A program made the translations under genes and the position numbers. Under the pieces are notes generated by a model. The model was not told the DNA's origin. It saw only the letters and a program-made list of their open reading frames with translations, and did not search any database. Positions 3,408 to 37,240 of a stretch of 45,809 nt of DNA are shown here, one piece after another. The DNA comes from a phage, in assembly GCA_024854585.1 (NCBI GenBank), contig GCA_024854585.1_4323.1; one strand, 5' to 3'. Numbering within the stretch: the first letter of the stretch is position 1; each line of letters opens with the position of its first letter.

Positions 3408-3428
3408 TTTAGCAATTCGTGCTATTTA
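3408..3428 (-). promoter_or_regulatory. Palindromic early-promoter/operator motif copy (TTTAGCAATTCGTGCTATTTA on + strand)
   Basis: Contains inverted repeat TAGCA-N5-TGCTA; overlaps TerL stop codon; TATAGT-like hexamer about 20 nt toward downstream gene. Confidence 0.6.
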
Positions 3429-4987
3429 ATTCCTGCTATGCGCATTAGTCTCGCCTTAGGATCATCCGCGATGTTAAGTACAAGGTTTGCCGCCATTGTT
3501 AGACAGTCAATTTGGTCGTCGTGCTTATGCGAGTCATCTGCCGTAAAAGCCGCAACCTCAGTGAGCAATCCGTTTAGCCACGGCGATGACTCTGGAAGAA
3601 CTACGTTACCAGCCTTAATCTGTGGTAGTGCACTCATCACCCTGGTTAGCTTGTCATTATCCGGTACGTATGACTCTATCGGTGTTCGCATAACCCTGCC
3701 AGCTGATTGAATCAGGCCGATACCAGACGCTTTCTTCTCGATAATAATCTTTCTTAGGATACCATCTGACTGACTGGTTGCCCTTGATTTCTTCTCGAAG
3801 TCCAGCAGTTCAGCCTCCAACTCTGGGGCCTCCCATTTACCCCTGCGCTGATCAATAAGGTAAATCTTAGCATCTTTATAGCCCCACAACTGAAGAACAG
3901 AGAAGTCGCTGTAACTTTTAGTGGTCATTGCGGTATCGCAAGTTATGAATCGATAGTCGTACTTAGCTGGAGGTCTGAACGTATCACTGATTCGCTGGAA
4001 CCAGTCCACGTTAATTAGGTTGCCACCCAGTGCTACTGGCTCCTGCTGATATTGACTAAGGAATGTGTACGGGTCGCTATCCCACATTGCCACCAGGTCG
4101 TTTACGGATTCCTTTTTAGGAAAGTAGCTGTAGTACTTTACGCCATCTCGCTCAATGTATTCGCTGCTTAGTACGTCCTCAGCAAACTGATCTTTAATCC
4201 AGTCAGGAAGTGAATCAATGTAATCCTCAGTAACTAATGCTGGTATCTTAATCAAATCGAATTCGATACCCATGCCGCCTTCCATCATGAAATAGGTTGA
4301 GTCATTGACGTGAAGCCGCTGCTGTATCGAAATGATTGGTGTCGCTTTGCCTTTTACAGAACTGGCTCGACGTGAGCGAATCGTATTTTTAAGCATTACG
4401 TGATTATTCGATCGGTACACTGCTGATAACATATCTGCGGGTTTGTCAAAGTCATCCAAAAGAACGGCTCCGCTGTATGTTTCGGTTATGTACCCACCGC
4501 GAGCGCCAGTAATCTGGCCTCCAGCCGCCTTTGATATTGACTCAAATCTAACCTTGCCACTCTCATCAAGAACCTGAAGCTCATCGTCTTTGCAAGTGCC
4601 AAACTTGCATGGCCAGAGTGACTGAAATTCTTGAGACTTGATAAGGTCGCGTACTCGCTTCGAGTTACGCTTAACCAGGGAGTCAGCAAAAGAGATGTTA
4701 AGGTTGCGCACCTTCCTAAGCTTAACCATCGAATAGGCCGGGAAGTGGATTGAGGCAATTTCCGTCTTTCCGCTGCCTGGTGCTATGTTAATGATGGTGT
4801 CCTTGCGCTCTCCTGCGATAATCTCGTCAATTATTCTGCACAAGTACTTGTGATGCCAGTTAGGGATGTATCGCTCGCCTTGCGTGATCTGGAACCAGCA
4901 ACGAAGAAAGCCCTCGAAGCTGTGTTCTGATATCGCCTTAACGGCCATCTTTTCCTGAATGGTCATTTCTTCCCATACTAAAGACAT
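3422..4987 (-). CDS. Terminase large subunit
   Basis: 521 aa; Walker A-like NIAPGSGKTE near N-terminus; precedes portal. Confidence 0.75.
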   Translation of the reverse strand: MSLVWEEMTIQEKMAVKAISEHSFEGFLRCWFQITQGERYIPNWHHKYLCRIIDEIIAGERKDTIINIAPGSGKTEIASIHFPAYSMVKLRKVRNLNISFADSLVKRNSKRVRDLIKSQEFQSLWPCKFGTCKDDELQVLDESGKVRFESISKAAGGQITGARGGYITETYSGAVLLDDFDKPADMLSAVYRSNNHVMLKNTIRSRRASSVKGKATPIISIQQRLHVNDSTYFMMEGGMGIEFDLIKIPALVTEDYIDSLPDWIKDQFAEDVLSSEYIERDGVKYYSYFPKKESVNDLVAMWDSDPYTFLSQYQQEPVALGGNLINVDWFQRISDTFRPPAKYDYRFITCDTAMTTKSYSDFSVLQLWGYKDAKIYLIDQRRGKWEAPELEAELLDFEKKSRATSQSDGILRKIIIEKKASGIGLIQSAGRVMRTPIESYVPDNDKLTRVMSALPQIKAGNVVLPESSPWLNGLLTEVAAFTADDSHKHDDQIDCLTMAANLVLNIADDPKARLMRIAGIK

Positions 4988-5004
4988 GTTATACCCTCTT
5001 ATTG

Positions 5005-5511
5005 TTATAGCTTGCTAATAACAGACTCAAGCGCTTCCTTCATGCTATCAACGTCGTTAGCTGCAGAGTTATTGCTAATGGTAATTTCCTGCGGCTTATC
5101 AATTCCTAGCTCTTTACCCACGATGGTGGAGTTGATGATACCTGCAACGCCAAGCTGATATTTCTGCTCGTAAATTACGTTATCAATGAATTCCATCACG
5201 TCACAGTAGCCAGCCTCAGTGCGCCACCTAGCGAATCTGTTGATATTAACACCCATGAAGAGCGCCAACCCGGTTAATGTGAACACTCGAGGCTTGTGTA
5301 CCAGGTTCTCGCTAACCACGCCCTGGAATGCCGCCGTCTCAATAGCTTTGATTGCATCACTCTCAGCCCATGAGAAGTATCGAACAGCGAAATCGAAAAC
5401 CTCCTCAGGCGTGTACTTACGGTTGATTGCCACCATAGCAATATCGCCATACTTCTTGTTGTAAAGCGCCTTGAAATTTCCCTCACCCATCTTTAATGCT
5501 GCTTTGCTCAT
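5005..5511 (-). CDS. Putative terminase small subunit
   Basis: 168 aa ORF immediately upstream of large terminase in same orientation. Confidence 0.5.
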   Translation of the reverse strand: MSKAALKMGEGNFKALYNKKYGDIAMVAINRKYTPEEVFDFAVRYFSWAESDAIKAIETAAFQGVVSENLVHKPRVFTLTGLALFMGVNINRFARWRTEAGYCDVMEFIDNVIYEQKYQLGVAGIINSTIVGKELGIDKPQEITISNNSAANDVDSMKEALESVISKL

Positions 5512-5555
5512 TTAATCCTCCTTTGTTGAGGTCAGATTATATCATATTACAGACG

Positions 5556-5584
5556 AAAAAAAGCCCTCAAGCGAGGGCTAAAAA
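5556..5584. terminator. Hairpin aaaaagccctcaagcgagggctaaaaa
   Basis: GC stem agccctc/gagggct with A/T flanks. Confidence 0.45.
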
Positions 5585-5623
5585 CAACGAGGGAAACGAA
5601 ACTTAACGAGGGTATAACACTTT

Positions 5624-5806
5624 TTACTTTCGCTCACGAACGTAAGCTACCAGGAATTTGTGAGTGTCAGGGTCAGCTCCCGACATCTCTTTTACTTTCG
5701 CTACCGCATTCTCAGCGCTGATTGCGGCAACTGACGCGATGTAATCTTGAGTGCAATTCTTGCACGAGCGGCCCATTAAGCGAATGGACAACTTCACATC
5801 CCACAT
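5624..5806 (-). CDS. Small hypothetical protein (track ORF 5624..5884 trimmed to internal ATG because upstream part overlaps tRNA)
   Basis: ORF track; N-terminal 26 codons overlap the tRNA. Confidence 0.35.
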   Translation of the reverse strand: MWDVKLSIRLMGRSCKNCTQDYIASVAAISAENAVAKVKEMSGADPDTHKFLVAYVRERK

Positions 5807-5821
5807 AATGAACTCCTTGTT

Positions 5822-5899
5822 TGGCACTCCGCACTGGCCTCGAACCAGTAACCTACGACTTAGAAGGTCGTTGCTGCTATCCAATTGAGCTAGCGGAGC
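5822..5899 (-). tRNA. tRNA-Arg (anticodon UCU), CCA encoded; D-arm region atypical
   Basis: Manual fold: 7-bp acceptor stem (one G-U), anticodon stem ACGAC/GTCGT with loop CTTCTAA (U33, anticodon TCT, A37), T-arm ACTGG-TTCGAGG-CCAGT; D-arm has only about 3 clean base pairs. Confidence 0.6.
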
Positions 5900-6224
5900 T
5901 TTGAATGAGTCCCGGTTACGGCTCCGGGGCTGCCTGATACAGCCGATTAATCTGCCTATTTGCGCTAGGTCTTACAAGTCCCATAAGGGAGTGAGGTTTA
6001 CGCCTTATCCTCTTGGTCCATTGTGCCGCATACGCTACTTAATGAGCAACGGACTTACCGTGTAGTGCGCTCCGTGCGCCGTTCCATCTTGAATGGCTCT
6101 TTTGCCTACGTGGTTAATATTAGATAATTCCAGTCAGTGATGCAAGCTCTTTTTAACAATATCCATCTAAACGATTAAAAAGTAAGCCCAAGTAATCATC
6201 CCTGCGATAAACCAGATTGTTAAC

Positions 6225-6464
6225 TCACTCATAAAGGCTGTTCCCATTCTCGTCATGACCAACTCGACCTTTGAGATACCCTGCGACCCACACAAATCGA
6301 TCCCTGCTGATAACTGTAGAAACGGGCTGCCAAATCTCAGTAATGATACCGGCAACGAGTTTGTCATTTTTTCGGTCCAGCTTGCTTAATGACTCATACT
6401 TATCGTTGAGCTTTTTAGCCTGGCGCTTTACCGCATTGAACATCGCTTCATTTAGTCCGAACAT
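6225..6464 (-). CDS. Hypothetical early protein
   Basis: 79 aa ORF with GAGAG RBS and TATAAT-like hexamer plus degenerate motif upstream. Confidence 0.5.
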   Translation of the reverse strand: MFGLNEAMFNAVKRQAKKLNDKYESLSKLDRKNDKLVAGIITEIWQPVSTVISRDRFVWVAGYLKGRVGHDENGNSLYE

Positions 6465-6521
6465 TACTCAATCTCTCGTTGTGTTGATATGGTGATTATA
6501 TGCCATCCGTGGCGACTGCGA

Positions 6522-6540
6522 TTAGCTTTTATTGCTATAG
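6522..6540 (-). promoter_or_regulatory. Degenerate copy of palindromic motif (attagcttttattgctata)
   Basis: Followed at about 20 nt by perfect TATAAT-like hexamer (cataTAATca on gene strand). Confidence 0.35.
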
Positions 6541-6849: not shown

Positions 6850-6978
6850 GATCGTAGTAAGCCATCGCCTCTTCGCCCGTTTTGGCTTCGTCCTGCATTC
6901 GCTTACACCACTCTAATGGGCCTTCTTGTACTTCCATGATGAATCACCTTACTTAAATTATTGTTAGTTATAATGCGT

Positions 6979-7156: not shown

Positions 7157-7164
7157 TTGAAATT

Positions 7165-7377: not shown

Positions 7378-7433
7378 TTCTGATTCCTCGTTCGTTTCGA
7401 TGGGGTAACTATACCAAATTACCCAGATTCTGT

Positions 7434-7454
7434 TTTAGCAATTCGTGCTATTTA
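7434..7454 (-). promoter_or_regulatory. Palindromic promoter/operator motif copy
   Basis: tttagcaattcgtgctattta; 20 nt then TATAGT; 56-nt leader to ATG 7377. Confidence 0.6.
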
Positions 7455-7849: not shown

Positions 7850-7850
7850 C

Positions 7851-8042: not shown

Positions 8043-8097
8043 CTTTGCTTCCTCTCGTTTGGTGTGAACCAACTATAACAAAACCTGCCGGAGCGGG

Positions 8098-8116
8098 TTT
8101 AGCAATTCGTGCTATT
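8098..8116 (-). promoter_or_regulatory. Palindromic promoter/operator motif copy
   Basis: tttagcaattcgtgctatt upstream of 7851..8072. Confidence 0.55.
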
Positions 8117-8842: not shown

Positions 8843-8906
8843 AAATTACCCCTTAGTTGATTGTTTCACTTCAATGAGTGCACTATAGCAAATGCACTCA
8901 CGGCAG

Positions 8907-8925
8907 TTTTAACAAAAAGTGCTAT
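8907..8925 (-). promoter_or_regulatory. Variant motif copy (ttttaacaaaaagtgctat)
   Basis: Conserved ATAGCAC half-site, degenerate second half; upstream of 8618..8842. Confidence 0.45.
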
Positions 8926-9623: not shown

Positions 9624-9877
9624 TGTTTTTCCGCCTCTTCCGCCGCCAGGATTAATGCCGCCGCCAGATTGCGCGCCTTATCAGGACTGTAGTGCATCAG
9701 CATCTGCCCGTCCCCGTAGTCATCCGGATTGAAGTCTAGATACACAACGTCTCCTTGAGCGCTTTTTGTGATTCCGACCTCAGCTTGGTCAAAGTGAACA
9801 TCTTCAATTCTTACAGCTTTCATAATAATCCCCTCTTTGTTGTCGATGGGGTAATCATAGCTGACTACCAGATCCAT
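9620..9877 (-). CDS. Small protein, paralog family member (likely true start at internal MKAVRIEDV)
   Basis: ...LDFNPDD...YSPDKARNLAAALILAAEEAE. Confidence 0.55.
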   Translation of the reverse strand: MDLVVSYDYPIDNKEGIIMKAVRIEDVHFDQAEVGITKSAQGDVVYLDFNPDDYGDGQMLMHYSPDKARNLAAALILAAEEAEKQ

Positions 9878-9879
9878 TG

Positions 9880-9900
9880 TTTAGCAATTCGTGCTATTTA
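9880..9900 (-). promoter_or_regulatory. Palindromic promoter/operator motif copy
   Basis: tttagcaattcgtgctattta; overlaps stop of 9894..10418. Confidence 0.6.
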
Positions 9901-11587: not shown

Positions 11588-11607
11588 AATAGCACTTTTT
11601 GCTAAAG
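11588..11607 (+). promoter_or_regulatory. Motif copy in + gene orientation (aatagcactttttgctaaag)
   Basis: Followed by TATAGT-like hexamer and GAGGAGAGA RBS before ATG 11661. Confidence 0.5.
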
Positions 11608-11660
11608 ACATGTAGAACTGGTGAGGCTATAGTTAGCCCATCAACAACGAGGAGAGATAC

Positions 11661-12099: not shown

Positions 12100-12260
12100 T
12101 GCTATTACCTTCAGATTTGAGCTATTGGGATTTTGAGGTTGTGTCAATAATGTCTGGAAAGGGCTGGCCTTGCGGTGATTGGTTCCGCGAAGACTTGCTT
12201 GAGAGTCATGAGATTATGCTCAAGGCCATAGAAAAAGCACGAAATATCACTAATTGCTAA
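12099..12260 (+). CDS. Small hypothetical protein (below ORF-track cutoff)
   Basis: ATG overlapping previous stop (GTGATG); about 53 codons; read from sequence. Confidence 0.3.
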   Translation: MLLPSDLSYWDFEVVSIMSGKGWPCGDWFREDLLESHEIMLKAIEKARNITNC

Positions 12261-12262
12261 AG
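12242..12262 (+). promoter_or_regulatory. Motif copy in + orientation (aaatatcactaattgctaaag) followed by hairpin agcccttcggggct
   Basis: Read from sequence. Confidence 0.45.
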
Positions 12263-12323
12263 CCCTTCGGGGCTTTTCATGTATATTAATCTCATCGAAA
12301 CGAAACAATGAAGGGTAAAAGAA

Positions 12324-12677
12324 ATGACTACTACGATTACTAAAAACTGGATCAGCAACGAAAACGTACTATACAAAGCTCGCGTTAAAGATGGTGTAGA
12401 ACAAATCAAGAAAGATGGGAAATGGGTTAACCTGGAAGAGCGCGGTAAGTACATCAAGACAAAGACCATTTACTGCACAAAGGTTAATCATCGAAGTGGT
12501 GTTAAGAAGAATTTCAATGTTGACTCAAGGTATCAAGTTAATATTCATTCGGGTCTTGGTCAGTGGGCGGGATATATCTATGACGAGGATGGTAGCGCGT
12601 GGCAACTTTACCGAAATGAAGAGGTTGGTTTCTTTACACTTTGCGGAACATATCTATTTGAGGCAAAATATTCATGA
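12324..12677 (+). CDS. Hypothetical protein; paralog of 16377..16577 (shared TIYCTK...Y core)
   Basis: 117 aa; KTIYCTKVNHRSG...GYIY resembles KIIYCTKNNSKT...GYYKIY. Confidence 0.5.
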   Translation: MTTTITKNWISNENVLYKARVKDGVEQIKKDGKWVNLEERGKYIKTKTIYCTKVNHRSGVKKNFNVDSRYQVNIHSGLGQWAGYIYDEDGSAWQLYRNEEVGFFTLCGTYLFEAKYS

Positions 12678-13171
12678 ACTTCAATGAGCTTTTTAGCTAT
12701 AAAGATGGTTTTCTTTATTGGAAATCGCTAGCACCATCAAAGAGCGGAAGGAAAAGCAGGATAAAGATTGGGGACAAGACCTCTGAGTTACTGACAAAAA
12801 GTGGTTATGATAGAGTCGTTGTAAACAATAAATTCTATTACAAGCATAGAGTTATATGGGAAATGCACAACGGACCAATACCAGATGGGATGCAAATTGA
12901 CCATATCAATCATGCTAGAAACGACAATAGAATTGAGAATTTAAGATTGGTAAGTAACTCTTCAAACTCAAAGAATCGAAGAATTCTAAAAAGAAACACA
13001 AGTGGATTCAATGGCGTTTACTTTTCAAACACGTTTAAAAGATGGATTGCAGAGGCAATGTTTGATGGAGTAAATTACAACTTAGGAAAATACAAAACGA
13101 AGGAAGAAGCCATAAAAGCAAGAAAGCAAGCAAACACTAAACTTGGTTTCCATGAAAATCACGGCAAATAA
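12674..13171 (+). CDS. HNH homing endonuclease with AP2-like DNA-binding domain
   Basis: HRVIWEM...DHINHARNDNRIENLRLVSNSSNSKN (HNH) then NGVYFSNTFKRWIAEAMF...YNLGKYKTKEEAIKARKQA (AP2-like). Confidence 0.8.
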   Translation: MNFNELFSYKDGFLYWKSLAPSKSGRKSRIKIGDKTSELLTKSGYDRVVVNNKFYYKHRVIWEMHNGPIPDGMQIDHINHARNDNRIENLRLVSNSSNSKNRRILKRNTSGFNGVYFSNTFKRWIAEAMFDGVNYNLGKYKTKEEAIKARKQANTKLGFHENHGK

Positions 13172-13242
13172 GCACTAAAAGCTAAAGAATATCTGAGCGG
13201 GTGTTATATAATGCCCGCATATTAACGAGATGGAGTATTAAG

Positions 13243-14829: not shown

Positions 14830-15165
14830 ATGTTCCTGCTGGATATATTTAAGTTCTGCGAGTCGTATTCCTATTTCACGCGCCAGCATTTGGCGCGATT
14901 CATCTACCAACACAAGGACTCTCAGAGGTTCAGCAAGGCAGCGGGCTTATCACATAGAGAGTTTTGCAGTGCTGCATCAAAGGAGTTTTGTGCGAAGATG
15001 TTGAGTGCTGGTTACATTGATGGTAAGTGTGGTGAGTTTGTTAGCAATGGTAGCTTGAAGAGGCCATTTGGGTTTAACTTCGAGGCGCTTAACGGGTATG
15101 AAAGCAAATACATAAAAGAGATGATGAATATAGGAACAATGGCTGACGACGAGTTATTTATCTAA
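14830..15165 (+). CDS. Hypothetical protein
   Basis: 111 aa; start overlaps stop of upstream gene. Confidence 0.5.
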   Translation: MFLLDIFKFCESYSYFTRQHLARFIYQHKDSQRFSKAAGLSHREFCSAASKEFCAKMLSAGYIDGKCGEFVSNGSLKRPFGFNFEALNGYESKYIKEMMNIGTMADDELFI

Positions 15166-16577: not shown

Positions 16578-16606
16578 CTCGTTTCGATGTGGTGATTATG
16601 CCGCAT

Positions 16607-17143
16607 TTATACGGCATTGGTTAGGCAAAAATTGCTATTTCTAGCTTCTTCCGTGATTTTCGTGAAACCCCATAGACTTCTCAACCTCAAGCCTGAGCTT
16701 GACAGCTGTTTCATACAATCCCCATGATAAATGTATTTTACTTTCTGCTTTCCACATTTTTCAATCCTATAGCTAACACTAGCTATCCACTTCCCCTTAT
16801 TGTTCATATACACACCATGAACACCGGATTTGTTTTTAGAATTCAACTTCATATTTTTGTGATTATCTCTATTATTAACCACTCTGAGGTTTTCAATTCT
16901 GTCATCACCTGGAACTCCATTGATGTGATCAACCTGCATCCCATTAGGTATCTCTCCATTAAACATCTCCCAGACAACCCTATTCCTTGCGTGCTTTTTG
17001 TTGTTTATTGTTATATAACAATACCCATCAAACCTAACGCTACCAGCCTTATCTCCAGGGTAGTATTTTGTGACACCTCTACCACCTTCAATCGCCCAAT
17101 AAAGAAATCCGTCTTCATAATTAAAATAATAATGCCAATTCAT
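16607..17143 (-). CDS. HNH homing endonuclease with AP2-like domain
   Basis: HARNRVVWEM...DHINGVPGDDRIENLRVVNNRDNHKN then GVHGVYMNNKGKWIASV; 3-prime end runs through a degenerate motif copy. Confidence 0.75.
   Translation of the reverse strand: MNWHYYFNYEDGFLYWAIEGGRGVTKYYPGDKAGSVRFDGYCYITINNKKHARNRVVWEMFNGEIPNGMQVDHINGVPGDDRIENLRVVNNRDNHKNMKLNSKNKSGVHGVYMNNKGKWIASVSYRIEKCGKQKVKYIYHGDCMKQLSSSGLRLRSLWGFTKITEEARNSNFCLTNAV
16621..16640 (-). promoter_or_regulatory. Degenerate motif copy inside 3-prime end of HNH gene
   Basis: ttaggcaaaaattgctattt; followed by hairpin gccgcatttatacggc and CATAAT-like hexamer. Confidence 0.35.
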
Positions 17144-17196
17144 CTCTTTCTCCTCTCGTTTCTATAAAACAATAATAGCCGCTTTCGCGGCTACTG

Positions 17197-17216
17197 TTTT
17201 AACAAAAAGTGCTATT
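17197..17216 (-). promoter_or_regulatory. Variant motif copy (ttttaacaaaaagtgctatt)
   Basis: Upstream of HNH gene; spacer contains hairpin gccgctttcgcggc and TATTAT hexamer. Confidence 0.45.
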
Positions 17217-18345: not shown

Positions 18346-18427
18346 TTATAAGTTCCTTAATTCATTACGATAAAGTATAAGATAGTAAAGCTAAACAGTG
18401 GGACTAATGCTACTAGTATCAGGCTCT

Positions 18428-18685
18428 TCATTCAACTTCTTTCAACCAGTATTCAATCAAATCAGCACTAATTGCTAATTTCTGATCAAGGTCAGTCATA
18501 CAAAGGTTTCCGCATGCTGGCGAATAGTAAATCTGAACCCACTTACCGTCTTTAGTTTTTGCGTTCACATCCACATAATCAGGAGGGAACCAGTCAGAAA
18601 TAGGTATAGCTCTAAACTTTGCACCACTTTTACCATATACTAAATCGTAATGCTCTGGCTGAAAATCTAAACCCAACATAATCAA
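18428..18685 (-). CDS. Hypothetical protein
   Basis: 85 aa ORF, overlaps neighbour by 4 nt. Confidence 0.45.
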   Translation of the reverse strand: MIMLGLDFQPEHYDLVYGKSGAKFRAIPISDWFPPDYVDVNAKTKDGKWVQIYYSPACGNLCMTDLDQKLAISADLIEYWLKEVE

Positions 18686-18930
18686 TCCTTAGGCTTCGTT
18701 ATCTTAAACTTGAATCCCTCAGATTTAAGGAACTCATTAACATCAATTCTGACACCCGGCTTAACTCTTACGTATTTTCTTGGTCGCTCATCCATGTAAG
18801 AGAATTTCCCATTGAACACGACGCTGATATCTTTTATGTCAAAGAAGCGGGATATCTGCTTAATATCATCCTGAATGCCAGCTTCTCCACAATGCGCCCA
18901 TACAGCGTCGCGTCCGGTTTCAACTATCAT
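18682..18930 (-). CDS. Hypothetical protein
   Basis: 82 aa ORF. Confidence 0.45.
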   Translation of the reverse strand: MIVETGRDAVWAHCGEAGIQDDIKQISRFFDIKDISVVFNGKFSYMDERPRKYVRVKPGVRIDVNEFLKSEGFKFKITKPKD

Positions 18931-19467: not shown

Positions 19468-19529
19468 TTTGTTTATCTCTCTGCGTTTCGTTTCGATGTG
19501 GTGATAATACACCACCTCACCGATTAGTC

Positions 19530-19548
19530 TTTAGCAATTCGTGCTATT
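19530..19548 (-). promoter_or_regulatory. Palindromic promoter/operator motif copy
   Basis: tttagcaattcgtgctatt between 19551..19757 and 19273..19515. Confidence 0.55.
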
Positions 19549-19550
19549 AA

Positions 19551-19757: not shown

Positions 19758-19820
19758 TTCTTTATCTCTCTATGTGTTTCGTTTCTATGAAGTAACTATA
19801 CAACATCTTTTAAAATCGAG

Positions 19821-19841
19821 TTTAGCAATTCGTGCTATTTA
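19821..19841 (-). promoter_or_regulatory. Palindromic promoter/operator motif copy
   Basis: tttagcaattcgtgctattta overlapping stop of 19835..20254; TATAGT hexamer and GAAACGAAACACATAGAGAG leader follow. Confidence 0.6.
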
Positions 19842-22245: not shown

Positions 22246-22315
22246 ATCTAAATTCCTATAAAAATTGTCTTGTAGCGTTTAATTGAGTACAATACTACCA
22301 TCAAATCGGAATGAC

Positions 22316-22335
22316 TTTTAACAAAAAATGCTATT
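22316..22335 (-). promoter_or_regulatory. Variant motif copy (ttttaacaaaaaatgctatt) in divergent region upstream of helicase
   Basis: Read from sequence. Confidence 0.4.
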
Positions 22336-22346: not shown

Positions 22347-22829
22347 ATGAATGCAGTTGACAAGCGAACCACTAACGGTAATAACGGAACTATCCGCACT
22401 GAAGACAAAAAACAACGTAAACGACCTTCAGGCTACTACGTTTTAAAAGATGAAGTAAGAGCCGGGCTACGCGCGCGGCTTGAGATGCTCCTTGATTTCT
22501 TCGTCACAAAGGCGAATATTGCAAAGCAGTTAAAGGTAACTCCGCAGGCTGTAGAAGAATGGTTTAAGCGTGGTATGATTTCTGCGCGCGGTGCTCAACT
22601 GTCGCACAACTACTACAAACGAAACGGAGAGGGTTTTCGTGCTACATTCTGCCGACCAGACCTGCAATTTGACGGTAACGGCAAGCCACTGACACTCCGG
22701 TGCAAAAAGCGTCACATGCTACGCGTGGTTACTGAGGCTGAGTTAGCCACCAAGCCAGAGTGTCGATCATGGCGCAAGATTAAGGCCGCTAACGAGGCAG
22801 CACGAAAAGCTAAAGAGCAAGGGAAATAG
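22347..22829 (+). CDS. Putative HTH DNA-binding protein
   Basis: 160 aa; KANIAKQLKVTPQAVEEWFKRGMIS resembles Cro/YdaS-type HTH; basic termini. Confidence 0.45.
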   Translation: MNAVDKRTTNGNNGTIRTEDKKQRKRPSGYYVLKDEVRAGLRARLEMLLDFFVTKANIAKQLKVTPQAVEEWFKRGMISARGAQLSHNYYKRNGEGFRATFCRPDLQFDGNGKPLTLRCKKRHMLRVVTEAELATKPECRSWRKIKAANEAARKAKEQGK

Positions 22830-22843
22830 CACGAATTGATAAA
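22824..22843 (+). promoter_or_regulatory. Motif copy in + orientation (aaatagcacgaattgataaa)
   Basis: Contains stop of 22347..22829; 20 nt then TATAGT; GGAGGT RBS before primase ATG. Confidence 0.55.
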
Positions 22844-22894
22844 CAGTGGCGCTATACATTGTGTATAGTGCCTTTATTGTTTATGGAGGTAACT

Positions 22895-23843: not shown

Positions 23844-23866
23844 ACCTGAAAGATGCTACAATCAAA

Positions 23867-23888
23867 CTTAGCAATTCGTGCTATTTTA
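23867..23888 (-). promoter_or_regulatory. Motif copy in minus-gene orientation with no minus-strand gene to drive (module-boundary remnant?)
   Basis: cttagcaattcgtgctatttta sits 20 nt upstream of tailspike ATG. Confidence 0.4.
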
Positions 23889-28130: not shown

Positions 28131-28185
28131 CTTTAACCTCGTTCGTTGTTGATGTGGTAATCATACCCCACTTTTTGATCTTGTC

Positions 28186-28205
28186 TTTAGCAATTCGTGC
28201 TATAT
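28186..28205 (-). promoter_or_regulatory. Palindromic promoter/operator motif copy
   Basis: tttagcaattcgtgctatat overlapping exonuclease stop; TATGAT hexamer and AACGAACGAGG leader before the Erf-like gene ATG. Confidence 0.55.
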
Positions 28206-29366: not shown

Positions 29367-29673
29367 TTCTGCATCTCTCTATGGTTGATTGCTTTCGATT
29401 AGTTAACTATATAGTCAGCGCCATAGCCAGTCCAATTGGTTTTGCCAATCGTTGATTTAAGTTTACGTGTGAATGCTTGTAATTCCGTGTAGGCATTGCC
29501 ACTTGTTACGTAAAATGGCATCTCAGCCCAGATATAGCTCAATGTAACCATCGTGTATATCGTGTATACCGTTTCTTGCAGAGGGGTGAATTGGTATAGC
29601 TGCCACGCAATACTGTATAAATCCACATGATATTAAAATTATAACCGGAACACTCTATGGAAGTAGTTACATG

Positions 29674-29736
29674 ATATACACAGTAATATATATAATAATA
29701 ATAATAAGAGTAAAAGGTTGATATATATAGATATTT
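29674..29736 (+). repeat. Copy 2 of about 65-bp AT-rich repeat
   Basis: atatacacagtaatatatataataataataataagagtaaaaggttgatatatatag. Confidence 0.7.
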
Positions 29737-29854
29737 TAATGTAACTAATGCGTAAATTGGCGTAACAGCGCGTATATCATTTTTCGCGGATGAGATTGCA
29801 TACATCGAGTTACATCGGTTACGTGTAACTGTGATTTGTGGTGAATTTGGAGAT

Positions 29855-29875
29855 AAATAGCACGATTTGCTAAAG
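29855..29875 (+). promoter_or_regulatory. Motif copy in + orientation (aaatagcacgatttgctaaag)
   Basis: Upstream of 29981..30652. Confidence 0.5.
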
Positions 29876-29980
29876 ACAACTAGCTATCTTTGGGTATATT
29901 TAGGCGCATGGCGGCAATGGTGCTGCTTGGTCTACCGAAAATCGGCAGACCAAAACCAAACGATGGCTAAAATCTGAGAC

Positions 29981-30652
29981 ATGAAAAACATAAGAGAGAC
30001 TAAAATGAACATTGAAGCGTACAAAGAACAGCCAAAAACCATGATGAGCACGAAGGAAATTGCTGAATTGACAGGTAAGCGTCATGATCACGTCGTTCGC
30101 GACACAAAGGAAATGATCAATGAATTGTTACATTATAACTATGCCCCAGATTTGGGTCATGATGATTATCAAGTACTTACGGACAATCGCGGCTATACAT
30201 CTGAGGTTTTACTCAACAAGGAACTCACCGAAACGCTAATCACTGGCTACAGTGTCGTACTTCGCCACAAAGTAATCCGCAGGCTTCATGAGCTTGAGGT
30301 GTTAGTTAAAAAACAAGCAGAAGTGATCAGCCAGATGGTAAGCATTGATGAGTTAAAAGAGGCGCGCATGATGCTTGGTGTGGCTAATGCTCAGAATGCA
30401 CACCTGAGCCAGCGCATTGTTGCAGAGCAAAGAATAAATGAGATTTTACTCATGGATAAGAATACCGATGAAAAACTCGACATGTTGGCTTGTGAGGCTC
30501 GCCAGTGTTGGGTTAGTCGTTCTGATGAGATGGAGGAAAGATTTAAGTATGAATCGCAATGCTTCGCGCTTAAAGAAAAGACGGATGCACTTACCGGATT
30601 AATTGAGAATGAGCTAGGTATTGACATTAAGCTGTTGCTCGAAAAGAAATAG
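29981..30652 (+). CDS. Rha-like phage regulatory protein (possible true start at 30005)
   Basis: N-terminal STKEIAELTGKRHDHVVRD pattern typical of Rha-family regulators; coiled-coil C-terminus. Confidence 0.45.
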   Translation: MKNIRETKMNIEAYKEQPKTMMSTKEIAELTGKRHDHVVRDTKEMINELLHYNYAPDLGHDDYQVLTDNRGYTSEVLLNKELTETLITGYSVVLRHKVIRRLHELEVLVKKQAEVISQMVSIDELKEARMMLGVANAQNAHLSQRIVAEQRINEILLMDKNTDEKLDMLACEARQCWVSRSDEMEERFKYESQCFALKEKTDALTGLIENELGIDIKLLLEKK

Positions 30653-30667
30653 CACTAATTGCTAAAC
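30647..30667 (+). promoter_or_regulatory. Motif copy in + orientation (aaatagcactaattgctaaac)
   Basis: Contains stop of 29981..30652; upstream of lipoprotein gene. Confidence 0.5.
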
Positions 30668-30733
30668 ACTGTTCGCAAGGATGCGATACTATTACCACAT
30701 CGAAACGAAACTTACTTACTAAGGAATACTAAA

Positions 30734-34900: not shown

Positions 34901-35398
34901 ACCATTAACAGACAGGTCAATCGCGTACTCGCAAGTAGTTCCGTTCAGATCTCCATTGCTTTCTTGCTTAACTAGTCGAGGCCAGAATAGCTTAACTCGA
35001 ATCGCTGAAAGCTGAGTATTGTTAACCGCAATGATGTACGGGGTATTGTTCGTGATTTCTCTGGATGCCTGAATCTCTGAGTTAGCACCATCAAGGCCAG
35101 CGATATAGTCCTGATACTGCGTGCCGGCACGGAACTCAGCGCGAACACCTTCGTAGTTGTAGCTACCATCCTGGTTTTGCACAGGAACATCAGCAAGGTA
35201 TAAATCCTTCATTGAGAAATTTGGGTCAACCTCACCATCAGCAACCGCCAAAAGAACCTTAACCTTGTTAAGTGAAATTAGGTTATCTTCCTGTTCCACT
35301 GGTTGATGCTGCTTCTGGCTACCGCCTTTAGCACCATAAATCTTAATCTCTTCAGCCATATCACAAAGCCTCATGTTTGTTTTGATCATTTGTGCCAT
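31973..35398 (-). CDS. Central tail fibre / tail tip host-specificity protein (lambda J-like)
   Basis: 1141 aa; last and largest gene of tail module after I-like gene. Confidence 0.75.
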   Translation of the reverse strand: MAQMIKTNMRLCDMAEEIKIYGAKGGSQKQHQPVEQEDNLISLNKVKVLLAVADGEVDPNFSMKDLYLADVPVQNQDGSYNYEGVRAEFRAGTQYQDYIAGLDGANSEIQASREITNNTPYIIAVNNTQLSAIRVKLFWPRLVKQESNGDLNGTTCEYAIDLSVNGGSYQEYTRGVANGKTTTGYDRSIRVNLPAEFDSALVRIRKITPDSTSSTLVNGMQITTYQEVIDAKFRYPLTALVYVEFGSDLFPNGIPTISIKKRWKLIQVPTNYDPESRTYSGTWNGLFKMAWSNNPAWVLYDLVTNRRYGLDQRDLGVEIDKWGLYEAAQFCDQMVPDGKGGVEPRYLCDMVVQNKVEAYTLIRDICSIFRGLTFYDGEKIGIVVDKPRNPSYIFTNDNVVNGLFSRTFASDKSLYTTANVQFDDVENNYQQDVEPVFELEATRRFGFNPVDLTAIGCTRRSEANRRGRWLLKTNLRSETISFTTGLEGMIPMIGEVIAVNDAAWSSNYQLNLSGRIESVQGLQVFTPFKVDAAPGDRILLNKPDGNPEARTIASISEDGRTINLNTAFSFVAQPDTVFAIDKDNLALQQYVVTGIQKADTDGKDSFQYTITAVEYDPNKYDEIDYGVNIADRPTSIVEPDRLSPPENLTVSSYSKVVQGLSVETMVIGWDKAPYAKTYNVQWRKENGNWINVPRTASTEVDIEGIYAGIYDVRVRSVSDTENVSAWSDIVTVSLTGKIGRPSAPTVITASTDEVFGIRVKWGFPEGSGDTAYTELQQVPDNGDGTYNPDNASLLTLLPYPAYEYWHTPIQPGKVIWYRARLIDRIGNTSDWSYFARGMSTDDANIINDYIKVDIEGSEGFKYLEQNAIQKNQDIQNQAESILENALANDSDVRRMTKENGKRKAEYVQAVNLIADETQARVEALTALKAQIDDEVVASITEVQTALATETEARTTADTALSARLGDNEAAINQKLDAFSNATSTGVQYGISLGLKYNGQNYSSGMSMELVGTGGNVRSQFIFDANRFAISNGIGSGSGQWQLPFVVENGNVIIQSAVIGDGSITNAKIGNRIQSNNYVAGSQGWAIDKSGSAEFSNATVRGKLYANNGNFAFNGTNNTVQINNNGITVNLPNGGRVVVGVW

Positions 35399-35410
35399 TC
35401 TACACTAAAT

Positions 35411-35432
35411 AAAAAACCCGCACTAGGCGGGT
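35411..35432. terminator. Hairpin aaaaaacccgcactaggcgggt
   Basis: Read from sequence. Confidence 0.4.
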
Positions 35433-35439
35433 ATGATGT

Positions 35440-36012
35440 TTAAGCATTATCTTCAGCGTAGCTGCCGGCACTAAACACAGAGCCGCCAACCGTTCGATAA
35501 CCATAAGGTAGGCAAACTGGATATCCAGCGGCAACCGTGTTTACTGCGGATCCGAATGCGTAAGAGGCCTTGTTGCTTGTTTGGTTGTCCTGGGTCTTTA
35601 GTCCTGTTGCTTGTGGTGATAGTAGCTGAGCAATGCCGCCAGCAGCCAGAGAAACACCAGCGCCAACAAGATAAATCTGCCCGGTAAAGATACCAACCGT
35701 GATAAGGGCCGCACCTAAAATTGTCTGAAACAAGCCGCCGGACTTGCGACCCTGGGGGATTGGCAAGATGCGTATCTCCTGAACGGCACTAAAATCAGAG
35801 ATTCGATGCTCGTTCACATTTTTGCCATCAACGAAAACGGCGTACCTTGCGTTCTGACCGACATGGCTATTCATGAATTCTTTGAATGCTGGAATCTGTG
35901 AGCATAGTGCTCGCATAGCTTCTGGAACGCTGCTCACCGCCATCTGGTGAATCTTTCCAAACTTACGGCCTAGAGACAAGCCTAACTTAATGTCAATCAG
36001 TTTCTGGGTCAT
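35440..36012 (-). CDS. Tail assembly protein (lambda I-like)
   Basis: 190 aa; C-terminal Gly/Ala-rich hydrophobic segment; position between K-like and J-like. Confidence 0.6.
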   Translation of the reverse strand: MTQKLIDIKLGLSLGRKFGKIHQMAVSSVPEAMRALCSQIPAFKEFMNSHVGQNARYAVFVDGKNVNEHRISDFSAVQEIRILPIPQGRKSGGLFQTILGAALITVGIFTGQIYLVGAGVSLAAGGIAQLLSPQATGLKTQDNQTSNKASYAFGSAVNTVAAGYPVCLPYGYRTVGGSVFSAGSYAEDNA

Positions 36013-36775
36013 AGCTTACATCCTCTTGTAAGTCCTTGTGGCGAACGATTCGCGCAGTGCGCTCTCGCCAGTAATCGGAGTAGATATCAACTGAGCTCAT
36101 TTTACCATAAAGGTGATGAATGAATCTGTTATTGCCAATGTAGATTCCAGCGTGGTTTGTCACCTCACTTTGCACCTGCATCATGATCATTGAGCCAATG
36201 GGAATGTCCGAAGTTTTTACCAGCTCAAATCCTTCATTAATCCAGTTGTCGTCATAGATATTTTCATTGTAACGTTTCTCCCACCACGGGTAATTAACTC
36301 GGTAGTCATTCAGTTTGATGCCGTATTTCTTGTGAAATTCCATTACTAACCCCCAGCAGTCAAAGCTACCAAGCCCCCACGGGCGACCAATCAGAGGCAT
36401 AGTTGATGGCTCAAGAATGCGCATATCTCCCTCCGGGATGCTTACGATAACGTAAGGAATCTCGCACTCGTTACAGCTACAGATATCCGCAGGACTGGGT
36501 CTTGTTGTGGCACCATCACCAGTGTGAGAGTGAACTACGTAAACAATAGATTCATTGTGAGCCAACTCAAAGAGGATATCTGCATACTCATTTGAGTCAA
36601 GGATGAATTCATTCTCAGGATCTTTGCTTGCATTGGTGATTCTGTGATACTTCTGGGCCCGACCCTTCTGCGTGACAACTCCACAGCACTCATGCGGGTA
36701 AACCTCTTTTGCGTGCTTGAATATTTCCAGTTTAACTTTTGGTGTTAACATTTTATCTCCAATAAAAAAGGCCAA
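35993..36775 (-). CDS. Tail tip assembly protein (lambda K-like; JAB/MPN plus NlpC/P60 domains); probable true start ATG at 36751
   Basis: HSHTGDGATTRPSPAD (JAMM H-x-H...S..D motif) and C-terminal Cys...His NlpC/P60-like region. Confidence 0.7.
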   Translation of the reverse strand: MAFFIGDKMLTPKVKLEIFKHAKEVYPHECCGVVTQKGRAQKYHRITNASKDPENEFILDSNEYADILFELAHNESIVYVVHSHTGDGATTRPSPADICSCNECEIPYVIVSIPEGDMRILEPSTMPLIGRPWGLGSFDCWGLVMEFHKKYGIKLNDYRVNYPWWEKRYNENIYDDNWINEGFELVKTSDIPIGSMIMMQVQSEVTNHAGIYIGNNRFIHHLYGKMSSVDIYSDYWRERTARIVRHKDLQEDVSYDPETD

Positions 36776-36809
36776 CCTTTCGATTGACCTAGTTTAACAC
36801 TAATTTAGC

Positions 36810-37163
36810 TTATTCAAAATAAACCTCAAAATCTATAAATACTGAAACACCTCTTGATTTAAGCATCTCAACTTCCAGTAGTTTATCATCAAAGAATGAC
36901 TTAGTGACATCAACACCATTCATTCGATATTTCATCTTGTTATCATGCTCGTCTAATGCCTTGCTCTGAGTATCAATTCTTGAAAAGTCGTAACAAGAAT
37001 CATGAAAAATACTTTTAAACTTTACAATATTGCCATTCTCATCATACGTCTGATAGTATCTGTTTGAGTCAACAACACTACATGGGTAATTACGGCCAAC
37101 AAAAAACAAACCAGCGCACTCTTCTTTGTCTTTTTTGTATCCGTTAAATTTAATTTGGAACAT
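36810..37163 (-). CDS. Moron-like hypothetical protein inserted between L-like and K-like tail genes
   Basis: 117 aa; has its own motif copy plus TATAGT hexamer and GAGAGG leader upstream, unlike flanking tail genes. Confidence 0.5.
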   Translation of the reverse strand: MFQIKFNGYKKDKEECAGLFFVGRNYPCSVVDSNRYYQTYDENGNIVKFKSIFHDSCYDFSRIDTQSKALDEHDNKMKYRMNGVDVTKSFFDDKLLEVEMLKSRGVSVFIDFEVYFE

Positions 37164-37219
37164 TTTTTAACTCCTCTCGTTTGTGTGAAGTAACTATACG
37201 CCACATTTTCCTGCACGTC

Positions 37220-37240
37220 TTTATCAAAAAGTGCTATTTA
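37220..37240 (-). promoter_or_regulatory. Variant motif copy (tttatcaaaaagtgctattta)
   Basis: Overlaps stop of L-like gene; drives moron 36810..37163. Confidence 0.5.

Follow-up and report, generated by a model that had tools for sequence, protein, structure and literature searches.

T1-like phages carry a 21-nt direct repeat, aaATAGCACnnnTTGnTAAAA, described in TLS and noted in T1, Rtp and Rogue1 (PMC11447400). Its function is left open in the published account, which names three candidates: a stoperator, an enhancer site or an UP element (PMC11447400). The host activators MarA, SoxS and Rob bind a short asymmetric site of their own, the marbox, as monomers. Published consensus sequences for it include AYnGCACnnWnnRYYAAAY (PMC3709825) and gcannwwntgnnaaa (PMC12052159), and at the micF promoter Rob contacts -47G and -45A (PMC9178005).

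Here we describe the repeat in a 45,809-nt stretch of DNA (the window) from a T1-like phage (Drexlerviridae). Its fit to the marbox and its class II placement suggest that the phage borrows host stress regulators to turn on its own genes. On sequence comparison we give somewhat better than even chances to the copies being class II marbox promoters activated by host Rob, MarA or SoxS. This reading of the T1-like repeat is new.

A preliminary description of the window had listed 19 sites, and the motif is present at all 19 of them. A 20th, weaker copy, missing from that list, lies upstream of a helicase gene (13169-13188, plus strand). The repeat takes the form ATAGCAC-nnn-TTGyTAAA, here treated as a 20-bp box, ATAGCACnnnTTGyTAAAnn. 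In the window TAGCA-N5-TGCTA occurs exactly 11 times against 0.11 expected, and the oriented 18-mer ATAGCACNNNTTGNTAAA, with up to two mismatches allowed, is found 18 times, compared with none in a 50-kb piece of E. coli chromosome. The pattern first proposed, AAATAGCAC-N5-TGCTAAA, contains one N too many and finds 0 matches even at 3 mismatches; the correct pattern is AAATAGCAC-N4-TGCTAAA. Nineteen of the 20 copies are oriented along the downstream gene, and the sole exception, 23865-23884 (minus strand), had been recognized as such. The copies and neighboring elements are as follows, with promoters numbered as putative marbox promoters.

3375..3425, minus strand: promoter 1; box 3425-3406 ATAGCACGAATTGCTAAACT; spacer of 18 bp that includes hairpin CGCCAcggaTGGCG; -10 TATAGT 3387-3382; start predicted at an A, about 3375; targets a small ORF, then the portal gene; box TAG is the large terminase stop codon
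6488..6538, minus strand: promoter 2, degenerate box 6538-6519 ATAGCAATAAAAGCTAATCG; 18 bp with CGCCAcggaTGGC hairpin as in promoter 1; -10 TATAAT 6500-6495
7401..7451, minus strand: promoter 3; box 7451-7432; 18 bp; TG-extended -10 TATAGT 7413-7408, flanked by inverted repeat GGGTAA..TTACCC
8065..8115, minus strand: promoter 4; box 8115-8096; 18 bp; -10 TATAGT 8077-8072; target DUF7180 gene
8875..8925, minus strand: promoter 5; T-type box ATAGCACTTTTTGTTAAAAC 8925-8906; -10 TATAGT 8887-8882, flanked by inverted repeat GAGTGC..GCACTC
9847..9897, minus strand: promoter 6; box 9897-9878; 18 bp; -10 TATGAT 9859-9854
11589..11640, plus strand: promoter 7; box 11589-11608; 19 bp; -10 TATAGT 11628-11633
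12244..12294, plus strand: promoter 8; box 12244-12263 ATATCACTAATTGCTAAAGC; spacer with terminator-like hairpin GCCCcttcgGGGC-TTTT; -10 TATATT 12282-12287
13169..13219, plus strand: promoter 9, weak box TAAGCACTAAAAGCTAAAGA 13169-13188; 18 bp; -10 TATAAT 13207-13212; helicase gene downstream
16588..16638, minus strand: promoter 10; box 16638-16619 ATAGCAATTTTTGCCTAACC; 18 bp; -10 CATAAT 16600-16595; small ORF and lysis cassette downstream
17165..17215, minus strand: promoter 11; box 17215-17196; spacer is terminator-like hairpin TAGCCGCgaaaGCGGCTA; -10 TATTAT 17177-17172; target HNH endonuclease gene
19497..19547, minus strand: promoter 12; box 19547-19528; 18 bp; -10 TATTAT 19509-19504, flanked by GTGGTG..CACCAC
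19788..19838, minus strand: promoter 13; box 19838-19819; 18 bp; -10 TATAGT 19800-19795; box TAG is the VRR-NUC gene stop codon
22265..22293, plus strand: TTGTCT-17-TACAAT, a sigma-70 promoter of the ordinary type for the pir homologue, without a box upstream
22285..22334, minus strand: promoter 14, of a 664-aa helicase gene; box 22334-22315 ATAGCATTTTTTGTTAAAAG, inside the leader of the divergent pir gene; 17 bp; -10 TAGTAT 22297-22292; the two -10 regions overlap
22347..22829, plus strand: T1 Orf23/Pir homologue, a Cro/YdaS-type single-HTH regulator; the TAG that ends its reading frame belongs to the box of promoter 15
22826..22876, plus strand: promoter 15, of the primase gene; box 22826-22845 ATAGCACGAATTGATAAACA; 18 bp; -10 TATAGT 22864-22869 within a long hairpin
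23865..23884, minus strand: orphan, reversed box between the primase and tail-fibre genes (both plus strand); no -10 at 17-19 bp; overlaps tail-fibre start region
28153..28203, minus strand: promoter 16, of the Erf gene; box 28203-28184; 18 bp; -10 TATGAT 28165-28160; box TAG is the RecE-like gene stop codon
29857..29907, plus strand: promoter 17, of the Rha-like gene; box 29857-29876; 18 bp; -10 TATATT 29895-29900; atypical leader
30649..30699, plus strand: promoter 18, of a lipoprotein gene; box 30649-30668 ATAGCACTAATTGCTAAACA, 0 mismatches to all three published consensus forms; 18 bp; -10 TACTAT 30687-30692
37186..37237, minus strand: promoter 19, of the tail module; box 37237-37218 ATAGCACTTTTTGATAAAGA; 19 bp; -10 TATAGT 37198-37193; target 117-aa minor tail gene

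That the copies are promoters, and more than mere repeats, is borne out by their fixed distance from a good -10. The final AAA is separated from a TATAAT-like hexamer by 20 nt in 16 of the 19 promoter copies, by 21 nt in two and by 19 nt in one; measured from the end of the box, the gap to the TATAGT-like -10 is 18 bp (range 17-19). The same 18-bp gap is found in 71 of 88 composites when four relatives are added to the window (74 of 99 in another count), and about a third of the composites (29/88) have a TG at the -10. Consensus sigma-70 promoters number 36, against 40.1 expected, and so show no enrichment. TTGCTA lies 22 nt from the -10, too far upstream for its TTG to play the role of a -35, and the site is centered near -41, the position of a class II activator; both points had been made in the preliminary description. 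The probable transcription start is the A of CATCG, 7 nt past the -10; with this start the box would span about -50 to -31, centered at -40.5, and stand in for the -35 element. The leader CATCGAAACGA(G)AGG and then the ATG follow, the latter about 24 nt after the predicted start. The earlier label of 'early' promoters holds only in part: there are boxes ahead of the lysis cassette and a tail gene as well, and ahead of the gene that lies upstream of the portal gene.

The box agrees with the MarA/SoxS/Rob site at all specified positions but the last. Allowing one mismatch at most, the first consensus is found at 16 box sites (1.18 expected); the second is matched exactly at 18 (0.91 expected). 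T- and TAA-type boxes match GCAHWWWWTGYYAAA exactly, and exact matches in 50 kb of E. coli chromosome number 0. E. coli micF reads ACAGCACTGAATGTCAAAAC, 18 bp, TAGAAT, and the phage ATAGCACGAATTGCTAAAnn, 18 bp, TATAGT. Counted from a +1 at the conserved CA, GCAC occupies -47 to -44 in the phage boxes. All the published class II rules hold for them: a forward site centered near -41, no recognizable -35 and a normal -10. An activator monomer of the host with two HTH motifs would bind the GCAC and YAAA elements, occlude sigma region 4, contact sigma and alpha-CTD and recruit host polymerase, as at micF. Rob, which is abundant and constitutive, is the probable activator, while MarA, SoxS or RamA would act under stress. 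Searches for a MarA-like protein encoded by the phage found none (tblastn with MarA, E > 2), nor did Pfam scans of 20 ORFs reveal an AraC-type HTH. Binding and activation by Rob, MarA or SoxS, like the start site, are what we infer.

Could host RNA polymerase read the box without an activator, as a displaced TTG-type -35 with A-tracts serving as an UP element? The box does contain TTGnTA and ends in AAA(A), an AAGACA lies 16-17 bp from the -10 in a subset, and a function like that of an UP element was proposed by the TLS authors (PMC11447400). Moreover, two T1 promoters that carry boxes, Pdam and Porf65, show activity when the cells or extract are phage-free (PMC6737242); boxes working without phage proteins also count in favor of a host activator. 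Such assays do not separate direct reading from the marbox model, however, because cells and extracts contain Rob. At 22 bp from the -10, TTGnTA is out of reach of sigma region 4, and conservation is strongest at G/C positions (AGCAC, TTG), not in the A/T tracts read by alpha-CTD. That the full fit to the marbox consensus, the orientation and the spacing would all arise by chance is very unlikely. We regard direct reading by the polymerase as quite improbable.

A different regulator was envisaged in the preliminary description. In this model all the promoters would be activated or repressed by a phage-encoded protein, bound as a dimer to the TAGCA-N5-TGCTA dyad; candidates are the Pir homologue (22347-22829) and other conserved small proteins. 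Conservation of Pir extends to all Drexlerviridae (825 records), and its structural model has a Cro-like HTH core, of a kind that binds dyads as a dimer. T1 Pir activates the box-bearing Pdam (PMC6737242) and represses its own promoter, whose leader holds a reversed box. A second universal small protein (14830-15165) is predicted to have a winged-helix-like fold. But the box is not conserved as a palindrome. Positions 7 and 11 are C and T, and positions 1 and 17 are both A; position 14 varies (C/T/A) while its dyad partner G4 is invariant; and the dyad is broken without compensation in 7 of 19 window copies. Because conservation is asymmetric, we take the palindrome to be incidental, and this asymmetry, with the fit to an asymmetric monomer site, speaks against a palindromic operator.

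Nor do the effects of Pir always track the box. In published reporters T1 Porf65, which has a perfect box and whose reporter begins right at it, is independent of Pir, whereas Phol and PrecE have no box and yet are Pir-regulated (PMC6737242). Homologues of Orf65, the activator of T1 Porf65, are lacking in the window, Rogue1 and PsgS01F. Two other proteins suggested earlier, the Rha-like protein and the 'RHH-like' protein, which is a DUF7180 protein, are not conserved among box-carrying phages. The T1 equivalent of the pir sigma-70 promoter is TTGAAT-17-TATAAT.

The distribution of the box bears on the same question. Scanning related phages, as had been proposed, gave 10-16 composites in each of seven Drexlerviridae genomes, compared with about 0.1 in shuffles. 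Podophage C130_2 has 6-7 composites but no homologue of Pir or of the 14830-15165 protein, and the T4-like phages Lw1/RB16 and ENT3 hold a few such cassettes, again with Pir absent. A phage regulator strikes us as unlikely. By the labels on most records, box-bearing phages have only an enterobacterial host in common. Phage Motto, a carrier of 16 composites, is reported to grow on Pseudomonas aeruginosa (PMC10978715), and other records are labelled Vibrio, Stenotrophomonas, Stutzerimonas or Campylobacter. If these hosts are real, a factor of the MarA/SoxS/Rob type must exist there, or the box acts otherwise.

Other points weigh against the marbox reading. Unstressed cells contain little MarA or SoxS, and most of the Rob is reportedly sequestered; a virulent phage that relied on these proteins would seem to run a risk. 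The promoters may work with little help, since their -10 elements are good and a third have the TG. The phage box is also tighter than the host consensus demands (ATA at positions 1-3, TT at 11-12). The TAG stop codon accounts for part of this extra conservation, and the remainder could be another protein's specificity. Finally, Pir and T1 Orf65 do modulate certain box promoters (Pdam, Porf65).

What lies inside the units raises a further alternative. The stop codon of the upstream ORF is in or beside the box in 13 of 20 copies, as had been observed for many, and in nine of these 13 it is the TAG of ATAGCAC. Hairpin CGCCAcggaTGGCG, reported to occur twice, is found at the 3408 and 6522 copies. 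With the stop codon inside the box and, within the 18-bp gap or surrounding the -10, a hairpin that resembles a terminator, both embedded in the promoter, each unit would end one transcript and start the next. The repeat's main role might then be other than activation: a stoperator-like roadblock, part of a terminator unit, or a recombination linker that shuffles gene cassettes, as proposed for promoter-early stem-loops (PeSLs). Besides the overlapped stop codons, most boxes are followed by hairpins, annotated T1 terminators are located in box-to--10 gaps, and identical cassettes occur in unrelated phages, as expected of mobile linkers (PMC2839356); stoperators were raised by the TLS authors (PMC11447400). 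The orphan reversed box has no -10; its position is kept in T1 (34902) and PsgS01F (23116), and it is possibly a roadblock or repression site. Yet a rigid 18-bp distance to the -10 and strict co-orientation are traits of promoters, not of roadblocks or linkers, and these phages are virulent, with no known repressor for the box site. A role in recombination is compatible with promoter function but leaves the box sequence itself unexplained. We consider a main role of this kind very improbable.

The marbox reading can be set against four known systems. With the TLS-type 21-nt repeat the window shares sequence, co-orientation with transcription, G/T/A subtypes and about 20 copies per genome, and the start codon lies about 74-80 nt from the box as against 'about 76' in TLS (PMC11447400). 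Structurally the two do not differ, and the window adds one more example of the repeat; nothing is said in the published account of the fixed -10, the marbox fit or the embedded hairpins (PMC11447400). The stoperators of mycobacteriophage L5 (cluster A) are likewise short, asymmetric, present in many copies per genome and oriented with transcription, and both they and the phage boxes are often at gene ends, overlapping stop codons. They are bound, however, by a temperate phage's repressor and are not placed in any fixed way relative to a -10, unlike the boxes, with their rigid distance to the -10 in virulent phages that have no known cognate repressor. PeSL cassettes of the T4-type phages RB49/phi1 (PMC2839356) share the order of upstream stop codon, promoter, stem-loop, Shine-Dalgarno and start codon; the stem-loop either separates the upstream element from the -10 or overlaps the latter. 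Both are compact, intergenic, repeated many times beside small ORFs and common to several phages. The T1-type units thus resemble PeSLs, with putative terminators inside promoters, but the -35 of PeSLs is a normal sigma-70 hexamer, and the region upstream is AT-rich; in T1-type units a putative marbox takes the place of the -35. Class II promoters of MarA/SoxS/Rob(/RamA), such as micF, share the asymmetric 20-bp marbox with its GCAC and YAAA elements in forward orientation, the center near -41, the 18-bp gap to an ordinary -10 and the lack of a usable -35. Whereas host sites in Enterobacteriaceae are single and degenerate, the phage has about 20 putative marboxes in 46 kb, in a virus, far nearer to consensus, and its promoters, unlike those of the host, enclose a stop codon and a terminator-like hairpin.

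The 45.8-kb window is the complete or nearly complete genome of a T1-like siphophage (Drexlerviridae). Its nearest records, the vB_EcoS-12397 group and Veterinaerplatzvirus, are 86-89% identical to it, and its gene order agrees with that of annotated relatives. A preliminary description of the sequence listed 19 sites of a recurring element, and the motif is present at all 19; TAGCA-N5-TGCTA occurs exactly 11 times, compared with 0.11 expected. The pattern heading that description has one N in excess and matches nowhere in the window; the oriented consensus of the copies is AAATAGCAC-GAAT/TTTT/TAAT-TGCTAAA. A weaker 20th copy lies upstream of the helicase gene (13169-13188). As had been noticed, the copies are oriented: 19 of the 20 are directed toward the downstream gene and its -10 hexamer. 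At 13 of the 20, the box contains or adjoins the stop codon of the upstream open reading frame, which in nine is the TAG of ATAGCAC, again in keeping with the earlier observation.

On the transcribed strand the parts follow one another in constant order. The box comes first, then a gap constant in length but not in sequence, then a TATAGT-like hexamer and, after six bases, a conserved CA; the leader TCGAAACGA(G)AGG and the ATG, about 24 nt 3' of the CA, complete the unit. The gap measures 18 bp when the box is taken as 20 bp with the A of ATAGCAC as its first base. Every Drexlerviridae genome scanned (T1, Rogue1, PsgS01F, Motto, a Klebsiella Webervirus and a Warwickvirus) contains this full composite, with 12-20 exact boxes per genome and 10-16 followed by a -10 at 17-19 bp; shuffled genomes gave about 0.5 boxes and 0.1 composites. 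The fixed distance to the -10 bears out the proposal that these elements are promoters.

The function of the repeat has reportedly been an open question ever since the T1 genome paper. A 2024 re-annotation of phage TLS describes 21 copies of a 21-nt direct repeat, aaATAGCACnnnTTGnTAAAA, co-oriented with transcription about 76 nt ahead of start codons, distinguishes G, T and A subtypes, and records the repeat in T1, Rtp and Rogue1 as well (PMC11447400). The authors found just three sigma-70-like promoters, suggested that the repeat is a stoperator, an enhancer site or an UP element, and left its function listed as unknown (PMC11447400). The window repeat shares the consensus aaATAGCACnnnTTGnTAAAA, the co-orientation, the intergenic placement and the distance of about 76 nt to start codons. 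Because it was described for TLS in 2024, the repeat itself is not new; searches of the accessible literature gave no account of it as a class II marbox promoter, and the TLS discussion contains none.

What does the box resemble? It fits three published forms of the marbox, the E. coli site bound by MarA, SoxS and Rob: AYnGCACnnWnnRYYAAAY, as quoted in the portion of PMC3709825 citing Martin et al. 1999; gcannwwntgnnaaa (PMC12052159); and GCAHWWWWTGYYAAA (PMC6900184). The first form, with at most one mismatch, finds 16 sites in the window against 1.18 expected, and the second, matched exactly, finds 18 against 0.91; a 50-kb scan of the E. coli chromosome gave no box match. Among 88 aligned sites from five genomes (the window and four relatives), all specified marbox positions are kept except the last (position 19, Y). 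T or C stands at position 2, nothing but A or T at positions 9-10, G at position 13 and, in most cases, a pyrimidine at positions 14-15. In its left half the phage box is identical to the micF site (AGCAC); in its right half the T-type box is identical to the mar site (TTTTGCTAAA).

The promoter architecture agrees as well. In the MarA/SoxS/Rob regulon's class II promoters, a forward box centred near -41, or 18-19 bp from the -10 hexamer, covers the -35 region, no -35 is recognisable and the -10 is normal (literature including PMC12052159 and PMC6900184). All four features are found in the phage composites, and the class II geometry was correctly recognised in the preliminary description. The gap is 18 bp at 71 of the 88 sites, 19 bp at 11 and 17 bp at six; the micF promoter of MG1655 reads ACAGCACTGAATGTCAAAAC, 18 bp, TAGAAT, with an identical gap. 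TATAGT, TATAAT, TATTAT and TATGAT dominate the -10. A putative start can be placed at the conserved C-A 6-7 nt past the -10 (A in 75 of 88); a literature search found no transcriptome or start-site map of a T1-like phage. If the conserved A 7 nt past the -10 is +1, the box would be centred at -40.5, with GCAC at -47 to -44. In the cryo-EM structure of Rob and RNA polymerase on micF, Rob touches -47G and -45A, and sigma region 4 is held off the -35 (PMC9178005).

We therefore looked upon the elements as candidate class II marbox promoters, a reading of the sequence that we consider moderately probable. It rests on the fit to the marbox, the orientation, the spacing, the missing -35, the spread over several phage families and the failure to find a phage-encoded counterpart. 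A monomer of the host MarA family would bind the box and recruit sigma-70 RNA polymerase to a core promoter with only a -10. The monomer would probably be the abundant Rob, with MarA, SoxS or RamA in that role under stress. We think it quite unlikely that the box serves host polymerase, with no activator, as an odd -35 or UP element: a distance of 22 bp parts TTGnTA from the -10, and G/C bases are the ones conserved. An UP element, an A/T tract at -40 to -60 read by alpha-CTD, does not suit a box conserved most strongly at G and C (AGCAC, TTG). When a -35 is sought at a spacing of 16-18 bp, the best match agrees at 2-4 of six positions and draws on the terminal AAA of the box. The window shows no enrichment of consensus sigma-70 promoters, and the marbox reading would account for their near-absence in standard searches of T1-like genomes.

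The one copy with reversed orientation (23865-23884, minus strand) lies between the primase and tail-fibre genes, overlapping the tail-fibre start region, and has no -10 at the class II distance. Its position is kept in three genomes (the window; T1, 34902, plus strand; PsgS01F, 23116, minus strand). The T1 late region has more reversed boxes, at 15086 and 18850.

The preliminary description took the box for a palindromic operator bound by a phage regulator, a reading that is probably wrong. Conservation over the 88 sites lacks two-fold symmetry. The pairs 7/11 (C/T), 1/17 (A/A) and -1/18 (A/A) are conserved yet non-complementary, and position 14 is C, T or A opposite an invariant G4, its partner. 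What looks like a dyad is incidental to the marbox sequence and has three sources: GCA and TG(C) of the marbox chance to be complementary, YYAAA takes the form CTAAA, and 'AYn' takes the form ATA, which also creates the in-frame TAG stop codon. Nor does the dyad appear to encode an RNA hairpin; the variants TATCA and TGATA disrupt pairing without compensation.

If a phage protein nevertheless bound the dyad, Pir (T1 Orf23) would be one candidate. The protein encoded at 22347-22829 is its homologue (51% identity), and Pir is conserved in all 825 T1-like records. Its homologues have P22_Cro and YdaS Pfam domains, and the core of its AF2 model (pLDDT 89) resembles all-alpha Cro proteins; the modelled fold is of the single-HTH, dimer type and not the two-HTH MarA type. 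T1 reporters in E. coli showed that Pir activates Pdam and Phol, represses Ppir and PrecE, and leaves Porf65 unaffected (PMC6737242). We mapped the published primers onto the T1 genome. A box is present in the Pdam fragment and, in reversed orientation, in the leader of Ppir; a perfect box forms the very start of Porf65, and Phol and PrecE have none. Because box presence and Pir response disagree, Pir responsiveness does not follow the box. The four Pir-responsive fragments have no 7-9-mer in common. Furthermore, the expectation of a cognate phage regulator wherever the site occurs fails: C130_2 and the T4-like carriers lack Pir, and Pir is inert on a T1 promoter with a perfect box. We regard binding of the dyad by a phage regulator as unlikely.

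Other phage proteins fare no better. T1 Orf65 activates Porf65, yet the window, Rogue1 and PsgS01F encode no homologue of it. A hidden MarA-like protein was sought by tblastn (E above 2) and by Pfam analysis of 20 ORFs, both negative; Pfam analysis of window ORFs and a conservation check likewise identified no repressor gene for the box. Only four small non-structural proteins are universal in seven Drexlerviridae genomes: Pir and the products of 12324-12677, 14830-15165 and 18682-18930. That of 14830-15165 (plus strand), 111 residues long and encoded directly after the helicase gene, has a winged-helix-like AF2 model (pLDDT 89.5) with weak PDB matches and no confident structural or family match; some records wrongly label it 'YdbL'. 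Meanwhile, Pdam is active in a phage-free extract, and in uninfected cells a basal level of activity is seen from both Porf65 and Pdam (PMC6737242). Box promoters function without phage proteins.

The pir promoter (TTGTCT-17-TACAAT) and the divergent putative marbox promoter of the helicase gene overlap at their -10 regions on opposite strands (window 22265-22334; T1 36432-36524), and the helicase-gene box sits within the pir leader. Mutual exclusion is expected from this overlap, which may explain the published repression of Ppir.

Several known sites were compared with the box and set aside. The sigma-54 promoter is TGGCAC-N5-TTGCA; the box has AG for GG and falls 2 bp short of the required spacing. 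The Lrp consensus is YAGHAWATTWTDCTR; the flanks agree and the centre does not, and the asymmetry and fixed -10 distance would be left unexplained. CRP and FNR sites at -41.5 have half-sites and spacing unlike those of the box. The T4 MotA box is centred at -30, as opposed to the TTG at -40 here. L5-type stoperators are bound by the phage immunity repressor and have no fixed relation to promoters, whereas the phage box keeps a rigid distance to the -10.

The initial transcribed sequence A-TCGAAACGA, 7-17 nt past each -10 (for example, 3375-3365 and 7401-7391), is conserved across promoters and phage families; it occurs in C130_2 and T4-like cassettes and even after the box-less PrecE of T1. 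It could serve in promoter escape, as an RNA processing site or as a translation signal. The RecE-operon promoter (window ~29409-29445, minus strand, and T1) has an ordinary -35 and -10, an ATCGAAA-type leader and no box. Between this operon and the Rha-like gene is an AT-rich stretch (window ~29390-29860; T1 29850-30378) containing atatatataataataataat, flanked by repeated GTAAC/GTTAC motifs such as cgtGTAACtg; GTGTAACAG is found three times in the T1 region. The stretch has the look of a replication origin or of a second regulatory region.

A box scan of viral contigs was dominated by T1-like genomes and uncovered two further groups. One is represented by the podophage Escherichia phage C130_2 (Hungariovirus), in which P22-type ejection and needle genes accompany a replication and recombination module of T1-like type. 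Its genome contains 6-7 box-18-(-10) composites, with TATAGT and the T1-like leader, but nowhere a Pir homologue. T4-like phages (Lw1, RB16, RB43, Miller and 178-kb Klebsiella, Enterobacter and Cronobacter phages) have a few T1-type cassettes in their early regions; Pir was not found in them.

Cassettes in C130_2 and in T4-like (Pseudotevenvirus, Karamvirus-like) phages
C130_2, 3760, plus strand
C130_2, 4736, plus strand
C130_2, 37099, plus strand
C130_2, 13857, minus strand
C130_2, 10710, minus strand
C130_2, 1345, minus strand
Lw1 (L084), 327
Lw1 (L084), 943
Lw1 (L085), 2930
ENT3 (L131-L134), 65205
ENT3, 102929
ENT3, 148364
ENT3, 18372/18388

In two T4-like cassettes a full terminator separates box and -10, which are ~29-30 nt apart, one helical turn extra. 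ENT3 18372-18391 is a perfect double box, a marbox on either strand. According to the labels on most records, an enterobacterial host is all that the T1-like, C130_2 and T4-like carriers have in common. Many T1-like and C130_2-like records nearly identical to coliphages bear unlikely host labels (Campylobacter, 20 records; Pseudomonas syringae; Stenotrophomonas; Stutzerimonas; Vibrio), probably through contamination or mislabelling; such errors bear on any host-factor argument. Vibrio phage Vc1, considered as a test with a non-enterobacterial host, is too near the enterobacterial phages to inform.

Some observations count against a host activator. Most Rob is reportedly sequestered. The -10 elements are of good quality, one third of them with TG. 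Motto, with 16 composites, reportedly grows on P. aeruginosa (PMC10978715), and other carrier records have non-enterobacterial host labels.

The 18-bp gap and the -10 region also show an unusual degree of predicted structure. In folding of the gap, -10 and +16 region, the mean z is -1.96, and z is below -1.64 at 52% of 99 sites. One type of hairpin fills the gap and ends in a T-rich -10, resembling a terminator (for example, 17196-17172, 12264-12281 and most Webervirus sites). The other brackets the -10 with differing stems: GGGTAA/TTACCC, GAGTGC/GCACTC or GTGGTG/CACCAC. Between Lw1 and a Karamvirus-like contig, GGGGTA/TACCCC becomes GGGATA/TATCCC, a compensatory change. Annotated T1 terminators at 38973-39001, 39998-40024 and 41980-42007 fall within box-to--10 gaps.

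Hairpins inside putative marbox promoters of the window (others in T1 and in records L007 and L008)
3382-3405, hairpin
6495-6518, hairpin
7408-7431, hairpin
8882-8905, hairpin
12264-12287, hairpin
13189-13219, hairpin
17172-17195, hairpin
19504-19527, hairpin
22846-22872, hairpin

Is the repeat primarily a roadblock, a terminator or a recombination linker? Such a role may coexist with promoter function; as the primary one it leaves the rigid -10 distance unexplained, and we think it very unlikely.

The class II marbox reading is a concrete hypothesis open to simple experiments. In its broadest form, which we advance only tentatively, Drexlerviridae and Hungariovirus would place the majority of their transcription units under the host's Mar/Sox/Rob/RamA stress regulon through ~20 consensus class II marboxes per genome, in a mobile cassette. 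The T1-like family is large and commonly met, has wide use in therapy work and is a notorious laboratory contaminant. If the proposal is true, a virulent enterobacterial phage family would depend on the host regulators that drive multidrug resistance, and the expression of phage genes would be tuned by antibiotics, bile salts, salicylate and oxidative stress. As it replicates, phage DNA would present thousands of high-affinity boxes and act as a decoy, titrating these regulators off the control of efflux and porins in the host. The cassette, made up of box, terminator, -10 and leader, would be a mobile unit traded among enterobacterial sipho-, podo- and myoviruses, and a source of very strong, compact marbox promoter-terminator parts for engineering.

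A known arrangement of this kind is the PeSL of phages RB49 and phi1, whose stem-loops terminate transcription and whose units mediate gene shuffling (PMC2839356). Both are compact repeated units with a stop codon, a promoter, a stem-loop between or over the promoter elements, a Shine-Dalgarno sequence and an ATG. They differ in that PeSLs have a sigma-70 -35 and AT-rich upstream sequence, whereas the T1-type cassette has a marbox in place of the -35. By their sequence, the window elements would be class II marbox promoters in PeSL-like packaging.
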